Position numbers and translations under genes: made by a program. A stretch of 64,000 nt of DNA from Candidatus Methanomethylicia archaeon (GTDB taxonomy: Archaea > Thermoproteota > Methanomethylicia > Culexarchaeales > Culexarchaeaceae): assembly GCA_038727515.1 (NCBI GenBank), contig JAVYVS010000001.1, positions 614,961 through 678,960 on the forward strand. The letters run 5' to 3'. This document shows positions 19,819 through 30,328 of the stretch, in pieces (position 1 is the first letter of the stretch; each line of letters starts with the position of its first letter). Under the pieces are notes generated by a model. The model was not told the DNA's origin. It ran no database searches and saw nothing but the letters and a program-made list of their open reading frames with translations.

Positions 19819-19960
19819 AATTTTCCCTCCAAAATTGAGTATTGTAAAATTTTTGGTAACTCAAATAAAATTTTGAAGTTTGTGGTATATAAGGTTATTG
19901 GAGTTAAATGGTATGCAATGATAAAATTTATTTTGTCATTCGTTAAAAAGTAGTGTTGAT

Positions 19961-20021
19961 GGGATGATTGAGCTCGAAAGGTATGACCTTAATGGAATGA
20001 TTAACCCATGCTAAATGACCG
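19961..20021 (+). ncRNA. Putative box C/D guide sRNA
   Basis: GGG-ATGATTG (C, 19964-70)-12-nt guide-ATGA (D', 19983-86)-10-nt spacer-ATGATTA (C', 19997-20003)-11-nt guide-ATGA (D, 20015-18)-CC; intergenic and GC-richer than its flanks. Confidence 0.72.
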
Positions 20022-20077: not shown

Positions 20078-20347
20078 ATGTCCAAGAAGGCTGGTAAGAA
20101 GGCTGTAAAAACTGAGGTTAAGAAGATAGTTAGAGAAATGGTTATTGAATCAGAGCTTGTGGAGAAGGTTAAGAAGGATTTGAAAAGCTTTCAATATTTA
20201 ACCCCACTGGTATTGACTAACAAGTATAATGTTAGTTTAGGAGTTTCTAAAAGGGTTTTAAGAAGTCTTGCAGAAGCAAAATTGATAGAGTTAGTATCCA
20301 ACAATCCTAGGACACCAGTATACATTGTTAGAGGAGGGAAAAAGTAA
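20078..20347 (+). CDS. rps25e: 30S ribosomal protein eS25
   Basis: Basic N-terminus, YLTPLVLTNKYNVSLGVSKRVLRSL winged helix, RTPVY. Confidence 0.88.
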   Translation: MSKKAGKKAVKTEVKKIVREMVIESELVEKVKKDLKSFQYLTPLVLTNKYNVSLGVSKRVLRSLAEAKLIELVSNNPRTPVYIVRGGKK

Positions 20348-27274: not shown

Positions 27275-28080
27275 GGGTATATGTAGCTGGAATAAGAGAT
27301 TTAAGTTTAATAGATTATCCAAGACATCCATGTATAGTAATATGGTTTCAAGGATGCAACTTTAGATGCCAATACTGCTATAACTATGAGTTATGGGAAA
27401 TGAGAAATGAAAATTTGTTAATGATAGATGAAATAGTTAGGAGGATAATTGAAGTAAAAGATATTGTAGAAGCATGTAAGATAACTGGTGGAGAACCATC
27501 AATACAATCTGAAGCTCTAATGAGTATTGGAGAAGAATGTAAAAAGATAAAATTAAAATTTGGAATTGATACAAATGGTACGAATCCAAGAATAATAGAA
27601 AAGTTAATTGAAGGGGAAATAGTAGATCATATAGCAATAGATTTGAAAGCACCATTAAATGTTAATGATTACACAAAAATAGTTGGAATTAAAATAGAAC
27701 AAAAAGACCTAGAAAATATAAAGAGAACAATAAAATTAGCTTTTGAAAGCAATTTAGAAAGTGTTGAAATAAGAATCCCAATAATTAGGAGTCTAAATAA
27801 TAATCCAGATAAAATGTTGAATTTGAAAAATGATCTATTAGAGTTGGGATACGTGAAAGCTATTGAAGATGGAAAAAATGTAAGTATAGAGGTATTAGAG
27901 GTTATACATGAATTAGCTGCAAATAAAGAACTTAGATTACAAAAGAATTTAACAATCAATGAAATAGTATATTTAAGTGAAGCTATAGGTTTACCAAAGA
28001 TATATATTAGACATAGAGATTTAGGTTTAAGGATGAGCTTAAGTCATGCAAAGGAAAACATTAGGAAAATTAAATCTTAA
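27271..28080 (+). CDS. nrdG: Anaerobic ribonucleotide reductase activating enzyme (radical SAM)
   Basis: SLIDYP, GCNFRCQYCYN, TGGEP, DTNG, IAIDLKAP; convergent with nrdD. Confidence 0.92.
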   Translation: MRVYVAGIRDLSLIDYPRHPCIVIWFQGCNFRCQYCYNYELWEMRNENLLMIDEIVRRIIEVKDIVEACKITGGEPSIQSEALMSIGEECKKIKLKFGIDTNGTNPRIIEKLIEGEIVDHIAIDLKAPLNVNDYTKIVGIKIEQKDLENIKRTIKLAFESNLESVEIRIPIIRSLNNNPDKMLNLKNDLLELGYVKAIEDGKNVSIEVLEVIHELAANKELRLQKNLTINEIVYLSEAIGLPKIYIRHRDLGLRMSLSHAKENIRKIKS

Positions 28081-30328
28081 TTCTATACCTATCTTTCAAC
28101 TCCCTCCTCTTAGCCATATTCCATCCACTAACATCTTGATAGTATCCAGTAACTCTACTCCACCATTTCACATTATTAGAACCACAATTTGGACATTTAT
28201 CATTTAACAATGGAGAAACAGTTGCACAATCACTACATATAGTTAAATCCTTAGTATAACTGAAATATCCTATTTGAGTTTCCGTAGCAATTTTCTTCGT
28301 GAGTTTAAATAGAGCTTCAGGATCTGGATATGCTTCACCAAGCCATATATGGAATATGTTTCCACCAGATAATAATGGGAAGAATTTATGTTCAATATCT
28401 ATTTTTCTAGCTAATGGGATGTTTGCACCAACATATACATGTGTACCATTGCTATAGTATACTGGGACATCCCTTTCATCGCTCTCAAGCATCTTCTTAG
28501 CGGTTTCCAAATCCCCTTTAACAACTTTACTAGCTGCATCTCTATATTCATCTGATAATAGATCTGCAACTGCAAGCCTCTGAGCGCAACTTTCAGCTGG
28601 AGTTCTAGCTAAAGCAATTTTATAATTAAATTTAGATTCCAATTCATCTCTATATTTACGCATAGCTAAAATTACTTTTACAAGTAATTTCACAGCTTCA
28701 TTAGATTCATGCAATTGATAACCAGTATGCCATTGAGCCATTTCATTACCGCCAACTAAACCTATAACGAAAACCAAATTATTGAAATCCACTGCAGGAG
28801 GACCTCTCTTACCAGTTCTAGGATCTAATGGTCTTTGAGTTGCAAAGGGTAGACGTCCATTCTTAATCATAAGGTTCATCCACTTTAATTTAACTTTAAA
28901 TACATCTAATGATAAATCCATGAGTCTATATATTTCTTCTAAGAGTTTATCATCATCACCCTTAGCCTTATATGCAACTCTAGGAAGATTTAAACTAACA
29001 ACTTGCCATGCACCCATGCTAAAATGTTTACCATCAATAAAGTAAACTTTATCATTAAATGAGGAATCACTTTCAGGGGTTTCAGTGAAAGAGTATGCAC
29101 AACATTGGTAACATGATACACCCTTACCATATCCTCTATATGCTGGAAGAGCATTATCAAAGTATGGAGAACCGAATTTTGAAACAACTTTATGGACGAG
29201 CATCCATTCATCATAGTAATCATCTTTAAGAGCTTCAGGAGTTATGTAAGTTTCAAGTTTTGGGAAATTGAATGGTTTACCCCAAAAATCACCTTTAAAT
29301 GCAACTTCATATATAGCTCTAAAGAATAATCTAGCTTCTTCTTCAAAACTTCCATAGGTATCCTCACTAACAACACCTCTATAAACAACAGGTTTATCAC
29401 GCCAAATCTCGGGGACTGTTGGTGAAAGTTGAATATTGGAAAAGACTAATTGACCTCCTCTAGCAACATAACATTGAGTTAATTCATAAAACATCATTTG
29501 AGCCAATTGTTTGATTTCTTCATATGATAATCCTTCCATAAATGGTGCAAGAAAAACATTATAGTTATAGAAACCCTGTCCACCTGAGAAATTAGTTTGT
29601 GCAGCTGCAAGTATCTTAACTGAATGTAAAATAGCTACTTCAGGATGTTTAGCAGGACCAGCAACACTAGTTTTAAATCCAGTTCCATCGGGCATTAAAC
29701 CATAATATAAGAAGTATCGTAAATCATGATCTTGACAGAATGGTCTAGTTCCAAAATACTCTAAATCATGAATATGAATATCACCCTTCAAATGAGCATC
29801 AGCAATATGTATGGGTAGGAGCAAGAGATATTGTTCTTTAGAAAGCTTATCAGCCTTCTTCTTATGGGAAGTTTCAGGATTAGGCTGTAAATTAGCGTTT
29901 TCCTTAGCTTCAAAACCTAATCCAATATCGATGAGATAAGCATCATATACAGGTGCTCCAACTCTAGTTAAAACATTCCTATATACTATGTATACAGGCT
30001 TATTATTAGACCATTCAAGCAAAATATTATTTACAACTTCTCTAATTAATGGAGCACTCACGAAAAATGCCTTCATACTCTTAATTCTACGTTCAGCTTC
30101 TAAAGCTATAGCCTCAGCTTCCTCCCTACTTATAGGAGGAATACCAAAGAATTCTTCTGCCAATTGAGTTTCCTTTAAAAGCTGTTTTACAATTTTAGAT
30201 CTATCCCAAGGCTCAAAATATCCACTACTAGTTCGAACAAGTATTAATTCATCATCCTTACCCTTAAGATTAACAGTAGATTTATCGATCCAACCATTAT
30301 ATCCATTAAGCCAATCAACCAAGCTCAA
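28070..30328 (-). CDS. nrdD: Class III anaerobic ribonucleoside-triphosphate reductase
   Basis: N-terminal ATP-cone-like region, ENAN, HIHDLEY, PFC, FNFPK, QCC, TPAES, YSNGTH, CSDC/CPNC Zn site, SRVTGYY glycyl-radical loop. Confidence 0.97.
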   Translation of the reverse strand: MSLVDWLNGYNGWIDKSTVNLKGKDDELILVRTSSGYFEPWDRSKIVKQLLKETQLAEEFFGIPPISREEAEAIALEAERRIKSMKAFFVSAPLIREVVNNILLEWSNNKPVYIVYRNVLTRVGAPVYDAYLIDIGLGFEAKENANLQPNPETSHKKKADKLSKEQYLLLLPIHIADAHLKGDIHIHDLEYFGTRPFCQDHDLRYFLYYGLMPDGTGFKTSVAGPAKHPEVAILHSVKILAAAQTNFSGGQGFYNYNVFLAPFMEGLSYEEIKQLAQMMFYELTQCYVARGGQLVFSNIQLSPTVPEIWRDKPVVYRGVVSEDTYGSFEEEARLFFRAIYEVAFKGDFWGKPFNFPKLETYITPEALKDDYYDEWMLVHKVVSKFGSPYFDNALPAYRGYGKGVSCYQCCAYSFTETPESDSSFNDKVYFIDGKHFSMGAWQVVSLNLPRVAYKAKGDDDKLLEEIYRLMDLSLDVFKVKLKWMNLMIKNGRLPFATQRPLDPRTGKRGPPAVDFNNLVFVIGLVGGNEMAQWHTGYQLHESNEAVKLLVKVILAMRKYRDELESKFNYKIALARTPAESCAQRLAVADLLSDEYRDAASKVVKGDLETAKKMLESDERDVPVYYSNGTHVYVGANIPLARKIDIEHKFFPLLSGGNIFHIWLGEAYPDPEALFKLTKKIATETQIGYFSYTKDLTICSDCATVSPLLNDKCPNCGSNNVKWWSRVTGYYQDVSGWNMAKRRELKDRYRIKI

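Follow-up and report, generated by a model that had tools for sequence, protein, structure and literature searches.

A box C/D guide RNA gene with variant boxes, predicted to target wobble U34 of tRNA-Glu(UUC), and its complementarity to tRNA-Glu introns in a Methanomethylicia archaeon

A 64,000-nucleotide stretch of the genome of a Methanomethylicia archaeon, hereafter the window, carries a small RNA gene that is very probably a genuine box C/D sRNA guiding methylation of the wobble nucleotide U34 of tRNA-Glu(UUC). The guide upstream of its box D' pairs with the anticodon arm of this tRNA. The guide upstream of its box D has diverged from a family-wide tRNA-Leu target and pairs with introns of two tRNA-Glu genes. 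Whether this second pairing is functional appears to us evenly balanced on the sequence evidence; taken as a whole, with the U34 guide and a functional intron pairing weighed together, we regard the explanation as likely. Below, genomes, contigs, loci and families are denoted by G, C, L and f, respectively; the source genome is G000 and its family f1.

Results

The window encodes a box C/D sRNA with four variant boxes

The boxes, guides and GG/CC closing stem that an earlier note had read from the letters of the window agree base for base with the coordinates and sequences collected in Table 1. A divergent 149-aa gene (membrane protein) on one side and rps25e (20078-20347), followed by cysS, on the other bound the 260-nt gap that holds the RNA. 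All four boxes are off consensus, box C agreeing with it at five of seven positions and box D at three of four. The UGA/UGA elements for the tandem sheared G.A pairs and the U.U pair are present, and the 4b.4n pair is U-A, not G-C. The terminal stem is short (2-3 bp), and the distances of 12 and 11 nt between C and D' and between C' and D fit the guide length of about 12 nt of C/D sRNAs. The TATA-like box upstream is a possible promoter of the sRNA gene's own; a TTTAAAA/TTTATA-like element stands at a similar upstream distance in all homologs of the order, which is weak evidence in AT-rich DNA.

Table 1 Features of the C/D element and its upstream region in window coordinates
Feature	Position	Strand	Sequence and remarks
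TATA-like box, AT-rich	19924..19935	+	AAAATTTATTTT; about 25-38 nt upstream of the sRNA 5' stem
Whole C/D element	19961-20021	+	60-base stretch
Terminal stem, 5' half	19961..19962	+	GG; U19960 may add a U.G pair with G20021
First bulge nucleotide, between GG stem half and box C	19963	+	G
Box C variant	19964..19970	+	AUGAUUG (DNA ATGATTG; consensus RUGAUGA)
D' guide	19971..19982	+	AGCUCGAAAGGU (DNA AGCTCGAAAGGT), 12 nt; N+5 nucleotide A19978
Box D'	19983..19986	+	AUGA (consensus CUGA); AUGA or CUGA in relatives
Spacer	19987..19996	+	CCUUAAUGGA (DNA CCTTAATGGA), 10 nt; CC/GG stem closing the internal C'/D' K-turn
Box C' variant	19997..20003	+	AUGAUUA (DNA ATGATTA)
D guide	20004..20014	+	ACCCAUGCUAA (DNA ACCCATGCTAA), 11 nt; N+5 nucleotide G20010
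Box D	20015..20018	+	AUGA (consensus CUGA)
Terminal stem, 3' half	20019..20020	+	CC; then T-rich tract TTATTTT

The earlier note had also suspected that strict consensus scans could miss the element, and they do. Rfam gave no match to it at the gathering score, the best sub-threshold match being sR18 (C/D-box) with 14.5 bits against a threshold of 45 (E 0.63). A strict RUGAUGA...CUGA regular-expression scan of the genome returned 0 four-box matches, so box usage in the source genome is generally relaxed. A relaxed four-box architecture was found 132 times in the genome versus 34 times in the reversed genome, and combined with a guide match of at least 9 nt to a stable RNA 16 times versus once. 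Of 2000 shuffles of the D' guide, 18 reached 10 Watson-Crick pairs somewhere in the 8.5 kb of rRNA and tRNA; for the shuffled D guide, 9 pairs in either tRNA-Glu gene arose in 1 of 2000. Because the boxes are in addition invariant in relatives, we conclude from these counts that the element is not a chance arrangement and is a real small guide RNA gene.

The source genome comprises 1.59 Mb in 12 contigs. It contains a fibrillarin gene (PF01269, E 4e-99), an adjacent Nop5 gene (PF01798, E 2e-71) and an L7Ae gene (PF01248, E 2e-29). Its tRNAs have 61-72% G+C in a genome of 32.9% G+C, which suggests that the source organism, an uncultured hot-spring archaeon, is a thermophile. A related-locus search with the S25e protein found no relatives, and taxonomic placement was taken from CysRS instead, the nearest loci being in a Candidatus Culexarchaeum nevadense MAG (74% identity) and a Methanomethylicia MAG (73%).

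The RNA belongs to a family found across Thermoproteota

We searched for homologs by BLAST, pattern search and a covariance model, R1. The same RNA is present in 20 of 62 genomes of the class (Methanomethylicia/Culexarchaeia-like), the source genome counted, with 4/6 genomes in f1, 1/1 in f2, 4/5 in f3, 1/1 in f9 and 9/10 in f7; 11 genomes came from BLAST or pattern search and 8 further f7 genomes from the covariance model. Among 151 genomes sampled across the phylum, 15 more carry it, in five other Thermoproteota families (f12 5/5, f21 3/5, f26 1/2, f27 5/5 and f30 1/1). Boxes and guides are kept among the homologs, and the spacer and flanks vary. Box C, GGATGATT, is invariant in f1, f2, f3 and f9 and reads AUGAUGA/AUGAAGA in f7 and other members of the phylum. 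Both stems vary in relatives yet stay paired, the terminal one as GG/CC, GAG/CUC or GGCG/CGCC and the internal one as CC/GG, CCC/GGG, CCCC/GGGG, CUUU/AAGG or CCG/CGG.

The two guides differ in how they represent the family. A D' guide core, GCUCGAAAGG, or a near copy of it occurs in all homologs, and the D' guide described here contains it, as does the phylum-wide family defined by R1; f1-f3, f9 and five other families all share the core GCTCGAAAG unchanged, as befits an invariant tRNA-Glu target. The D guide departs from the CCC(A/G)CGCAGG of the family, which is complementary to tRNA-Leu CCUGCGUGGG. Orthology is clear despite this divergence because of synteny and the graded series from f1 through f2 to f3, and by this comparison the gene is the local ortholog of an old sRNA family of the Thermoproteota.

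Some homologs of the class have changed in other ways. In G041 (L139, f9) the tRNA-Glu D' guide is kept and the D guide is a different one, CUGGUCACGAGGG, with a 9-nt match to 16S rRNA near position 1294 (G000 numbering), an apparent retargeting to rRNA. The f7 homologs (L181, L183-L190) combine degenerate D' boxes (CGGA, CAGA) with a D guide that hardly varies, and their D' guides cannot pair with tRNA-Glu(UUC) unless A.C36 is left mismatched; D' function may be weakened or altered in f7.

The D' guide is complementary to the anticodon arm of tRNA-Glu(UUC)

The earlier note had predicted that the D' guide directs modification to wobble U34 of tRNA-Glu(UUC) and had proposed looking for a complementary tRNA-Glu(TTC) in the genome. 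Such a gene lies at C3:23319-23419 of the source genome and contains the predicted GGCCTTTCGAGCC, its anticodon arm reading GCAGGC-CUUUCGA-GCCUGC. The D' guide forms 10 Watson-Crick pairs with C31-C40, plus a G30.U pair (-19.2 kcal/mol); Lui 2018 asked for 9 or more contiguous Watson-Crick pairs between guide and stable RNA, centred near N+5. The fifth guide nucleotide upstream of box D' faces U34 in a Watson-Crick A-U pair.

Two other tRNAs, tRNA-Glu(CUC) and tRNA-Asp(GUC), pair nearly equally well with the D' guide, with a mismatch at position 34 (N+5). Since a Watson-Crick pair at N+5 has been reported to be essential (PMC6009581), these two should not be methylated at this position. C/D guides for tRNA position 34 are established (PMC6009581, PMC7994747, PMC7668247); those of Pyrobaculum, Sulfolobus, Pyrococcus and Haloferax are directed to U34 or C34 of other tRNAs.

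The D guide has diverged from an ancestral tRNA-Leu target

The earlier note had likened the target of the D guide to a tRNA D arm. This reading did not hold: D-arm matches amount to 8/11 with three interruptions, and the best partners are two pre-tRNA-Glu introns, with tRNA-Leu as the family-wide target. Pairing with rRNA does not exceed 7 contiguous pairs for any guide type except that of G041 (16S, 9 nt). Perfect complements of 10-11 nt in mRNAs occur in three long ORFs, at about chance frequency. One such 11-nt complement, TTAGCATGGGT, lies 9 kb from the sRNA gene at 29012-29022 (minus strand) of the window, on the mRNA sense strand of a 752-aa ORF (28070-30328, minus strand), and has a second copy at C2:286837; this too is about what chance would give.

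Across the family, the D guide would normally target the junction of the tRNA-Leu variable region and T stem, CCU[G]CGUGGGU. We examined the complete 1.32-Mb genome G109 (f30), whose tRNA-Glu genes have no introns, and found that its D guide, ACCCGCGCAGGU, forms 10 Watson-Crick pairs plus one or two G.U pairs with four mature tRNA-Leu isoacceptors, at a site, (U/G)CCUGCGUGGGU, running from the 3' side of the variable arm into the T stem. The tRNA-Leu target CCTGCGTGGGT is present in G109, G006, G009, G038 and G026, and N+5 of the ancestral guide is opposite the G in CCU[G]CG, which we number as about G47.

A pattern search of tRNA-Leu genes in 12 genomes of the order followed the fate of this nucleotide. 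The target G is kept in G006-G010, all with the ancestral guide. In every f1 genome checked (G000, G002-G005), the corresponding G of the variable region (GCCU-G-CGUGGGUUC) is T; it is also T in G011 (95% complete), where the sRNA was not found. The tRNA-Leu genes of the source genome (sites at C3:52358-52371 and C3:132434-132447) read CCTTCGTGGGT, leaving 7 bp with the D guide and N+5 at the edge of the duplex. The D guide itself changed from CCCACGCAGG to CCCAUGCUA in f1. As both the target G and the guide have changed, the tRNA-Leu function appears to have been lost in f1.

The D guide pairs with the introns of two tRNA-Glu genes

Among the 46 tRNA genes and the rRNAs of the source genome, the top two partners of the D guide are two tRNA-Glu genes, and both matches fall within introns, so that the search of rRNA and tRNA for a D-guide complement proposed in the earlier note ended inside both pre-tRNA-Glu introns. 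The guide forms 9 Watson-Crick pairs with AGCAUGGGU in the tRNA-Glu(UUC) intron, and 8 plus one G.U pair with UAGCGUGGG in the tRNA-Glu(CUC) intron; it pairs over 9 bp with each of the two and with nothing else in the stable RNAs. Of the four f1 genomes that have the sRNA, which span two genera, three share the guide unchanged and one departs from it by 1 nt, although the spacer has diverged.

We placed the introns by a bulge-helix-bulge search and by MFE folds. The 23-nt intron of tRNA-Glu(UUC) sits at a non-canonical place, about 45/46 in the variable loop. Its H helix (CCUG/CAGG) is well formed and accompanied by two 3-nt bulges, and the intron folds into a hairpin (UCACC/GGUGA, loop AGCAUG), of which the D guide covers the loop and three bases of the 3' stem. 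The intron of tRNA-Glu(CUC) is at the canonical 37/38 site, and its 3' GGGG pairs with C32-U35. Here the D guide covers the GGGG strand of the bulge-helix-bulge helix and the bases before it, and the D' guide covers the opposite strand (C32-C40) of this splicing helix. Because the two guides cover both strands, sRNP binding and the splicing fold should exclude each other.

Further observations concern the introns themselves. The tRNA-Glu(UUC) gene is 100% identical in G003-G005. The tRNA-Gly(GCC) gene (C5:71842-71936) has an intron at the same place and with the same 3' end, GACAGGAAA|CCCGGG, as tRNA-Glu(UUC); the shared position and 3' end suggest that the two introns are related or mobile. 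The D-guide target motif is absent from this homologous tRNA-Gly(GCC) intron of the source genome. In G116 (f21), whose tRNA-Glu genes have no introns, a 10-nt target, CCTGCGCGGG, occurs elsewhere (L282, C40, about 87178-87187), within an insert in the D loop of a gene resembling tRNA-Thr(UGU), which aragorn miscalls as Gly(gcc).

Guide and intron states correspond between lineages. They read GCUA:UAGC (guide:intron) in f1 versus GCAG:CUGC in f2/f3. The U that is specific to the f1 guide has A as its partner in the UUC intron, and G in the CUC intron. Another guide/intron column is A-U in f7 and G006, G.U in G028 and G036, and G-C in G009 and G007. All eight of eight tRNA-Glu(UUC) genes recovered from f7 have a D-loop intron with the invariant core CCTGCGTGGG / CCUGCGUGGG and variable flanks. 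Intron copies of the D target recur at three different intron positions in tRNA-Glu genes (f1, f2, f3, f7).

Several features of the pairings temper these correspondences. The guide-intron duplexes are short, 9 bp, with N+1/N+2 unpaired for the UUC intron, and going from 11-nt to 12-nt guides shifts the intron nucleotide at N+5 by one position. The switch of the f1 dinucleotide counts as one evolutionary event. In f2/f3 the intron copy is in tRNA-Glu(CUC), not in tRNA-Glu(UUC), and C34 of the former stands opposite an A of the D' guide (A.C mismatch). The splicing helix constrains the 3' GGGG, so that the match to the CUC intron can vary freely only in part. The f7 intron has 13 nt in common with tRNA-Leu and may be a copied tRNA-Leu fragment. 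Given the short duplexes, the possible copy, the splicing constraint, the placement in CUC and the chance matches in mRNAs, we see the case for a functional intron handle as finely poised.

The most serious alternative accepts the sRNA and its D' guide and takes the D guide to be an orphan after tRNA-Leu loss, its 9-bp intron matches having no function and being left over either from GC-rich motifs in common or from a piece of tRNA-Leu copied into an intron. The loss of the tRNA-Leu target in f1, the 13 nt common to the f7 intron and tRNA-Leu, the splicing constraint on the CUC match and the 9-11-nt matches that arise by chance in mRNAs all accord with it, as does the finding that about 80% of Pyrobaculum tRNA-targeting sRNAs have one targetless guide (PMC6009581). 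It fits less well with a guide that has stayed identical or 1 nt off across two f1 genera beside a diverged spacer, with two non-homologous introns, both of tRNA-Glu, as the top two partners, with f1-specific guide changes matched in both introns, and with target copies at three intron positions in tRNA-Glu genes of four families. We consider this alternative unlikely, though one to be weighed seriously.

Variant K-turn pairs are tolerated within the order

The earlier note had described the K-turns as doubly compensated, with the G-C pair between box C position 6 and box D position 1 replaced by U-A. The U-A pairs are real, the U at position 6 of C/C' standing opposite the A at position 1 of D/D' in both motifs, but they do not reflect strict covariation. 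The same U stands opposite C in all f3 C/D motifs, in most f3 C'/D' motifs, in the C/D motif of G041 and in the C'/D' motif of G006, so U-A is not required. The canonical G-C is found in f7 and most other families; across the family, G is always opposite C and U opposite A or C, with G109 having A opposite A. By this comparison, UGAUU is a derived variant tolerated in the order, and the U-A pairs are not an obligatory compensation.

The deviating boxes bear on a further alternative, that the RNA acts as a tRNA-Glu chaperone only, its boxes allowing L7Ae to bind and not fibrillarin to be placed productively, with no methylation. Besides the four off-consensus boxes, conserved pairings without methylation have been discussed for Pyrobaculum (PMC6009581). 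Yet the UGA elements forming the tandem G.A pairs and the guide lengths are intact, N+5 is in a Watson-Crick pair with U34, orthologs with fully canonical boxes have the same guide, and two other sRNAs of the source genome also combine a C' of AUGAUU(G/A) with a D' of AUGA, which makes a chaperone without methylation very improbable.

It is more improbable still, indeed barely credible, that the element is no guide RNA and serves as an L7Ae-binding K-turn in the rps25e 5' leader regulating that ribosomal-protein operon: it does lie 57 nt before the rps25e start codon, and the check for conservation upstream of rps25e suggested in the earlier note found the position before rps25e-cysS kept in f1-f3, but homologs in G041, G038, the rest of f7 and five other families are not beside rps25e or were found independently of it, the most conserved parts are the guides and not the K-turns alone, and a T-rich tract separates the RNA from rps25e.

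Other C/D RNAs were seen in the source genome. One, at C5:104837-104885 (plus strand), has C AUGAUGA, D' AUGA, C' AUGAUUG and D CUGA. The tRNA-Leu(CAA) sequence is complementary to its D guide over 11 nt, C34 being at N+5; its D' guide finds its match, AGGGCUAGA, in intron sequence of both tRNA-Ser(CGA) and a tRNA-Leu(UAA)-like gene called Leu(aag) by aragorn. In another, at C5:67361-67408 (minus strand), the D' guide pairs over 10 nt with tRNA-Val(UAC), with N+5 on U34, tRNA-Ala(UGC) matching equally (10 Watson-Crick pairs plus G.U), and the D guide pairs over 8 nt with the exon strand beside the 5' splice site of the intron-containing tRNA-Gly(GCC). The 53-nt intron of tRNA-Trp at C3:206359-206488 (minus strand) has C/D-like boxes, CUGA...AAUGAUGAUG, of the known intron-encoded guide type.

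Discussion

In the course of events that we infer, the sRNA would be transcribed independently as a dual-guide box C/D sRNA and would fold into a terminal C/D K-turn and an internal C'/D' K-turn, each of which, variant boxes included, would bind L7Ae and then Nop5 and fibrillarin. The D' guide would pair with the anticodon loop of tRNA-Glu(UUC), from G30/C31 to C40, and place fibrillarin on the ribose of wobble U34, yielding a Um34-type nucleotide. If the intron pairing has a role, this second contact would hold the unspliced precursor on the sRNP and add affinity, keep the anticodon/intron helix open, and make methylation precede splicing. Extended to the class, tRNA-Glu introns would be docking handles of the sRNP, by which the precursor is captured, held open and modified before splicing; guide and intron would co-evolve, and the pairing would here have outlived the original tRNA-Leu target. 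We offer this extension tentatively and lean slightly against it. These steps are read from the sequences, their conservation and complementarity, the matching changes and the protein genes present.

The core of this system, a trans-acting C/D sRNA guiding wobble 2'-O-methylation of a tRNA, is already known. In Pyrobaculum, C/D sRNAs address tRNA position 34 (sR27, U34 of tRNA-Gln; sR46, U34 of tRNA-Thr; sR26; sR45), and sR51 is listed as directed to tRNA-Glu (Lui et al. 2018, PMC6009581). They share with the RNA described here the trans-acting design, a guide over the anticodon loop, N+5 on the wobble base and a single tRNA target; the difference lies in the boxes, here AUGAUU(G/A) for C/C' and AUGA for D/D'. 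As the f27 genomes (1.8-2.7 Mb, complete) have the same two guides as the family, it may be the sR51 family, a comparison made with sR51 by description. Lui et al. 2018 scanned mature tRNAs only (PMC6009581), so the intron pairing would score 'no target' there, and published surveys would have missed this complementarity.

A dual-guide sRNA of Sulfolobus acidocaldarius directed to U34 and G18 of tRNA-Gln(UUG) (Ziesche 2004, as cited in Wolff 2020, PMC7668247) likewise has both guides on one tRNA, one of them at wobble U34, and Um34-type nucleotides are described for this species in the same source. As cited there, both of its targets are in the mature tRNA, whereas the second site here is in introns that are removed. 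For tRNA-Leu, a C/D guide for G47 of tRNA-Leu(UAA) is predicted in Pyrococcus furiosus (Lowe snoRNAdb, as cited in PMC7668247); compared by target position, it concerns the same region as the D-guide target of the family, a target lost in the source genome.

The sR-tMet RNA of Haloferax volcanii reportedly has an intron-containing pre-tRNA as its substrate. As listed in PMC4033218 (Joardar 2011, beside the Pyrococcus sR49 prediction), it is also a trans-acting C/D RNA guiding wobble (Cm34) methylation, in which the anticodon and the intron bases beside it are covered by one guide; here another, separate guide addresses a distinct intron segment, and the target base is U34 of tRNA-Glu. In pre-tRNA-Trp (Clouet d'Orval 2001; Singh 2004; as reviewed in PMC7994747, PMC11408192), tRNA introns, box C/D guides and position-34 methylation are linked as well. 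By these reviews the intron is the guide there, whereas here a guide encoded separately has it as its target. For archaeal C/D RNAs, a 2024 review on intron-dependent modification gives tRNA-Trp as the only case.

New here are the locus in an unstudied lineage and the UGAUU/AUGA box variant, together with, as the compared genomes indicate, a tRNA-Leu guide that was lost or retargeted as the tRNA changed with it, and the complementarity between guide and introns that recurs. With this gene, uncultured Culexarchaeia/Methanomethylicia-like archaea, a lineage that so far had no RNA biology, gain an unannotated guide RNA and, as a prediction, a Um34-type modification of tRNA-Glu(UUC). The case also makes plain that a conserved sRNA with UGAUU/AUGA boxes escapes Rfam and consensus-based C/D finders. 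The tRNA-Leu genes provide a natural experiment in guide-target co-evolution, with the G kept where the ancestral guide is present, and U where the guide diverged (f1) or the sRNA was not found (G011). Finally, the repeated occurrence of D-guide targets in tRNA-Glu introns leads to the testable idea that some 'orphan' guides act on precursors. If tRNA-Glu introns do serve as docking handles, some archaeal tRNA introns would have a positive function, and some of the 'orphan' guides would be accounted for.
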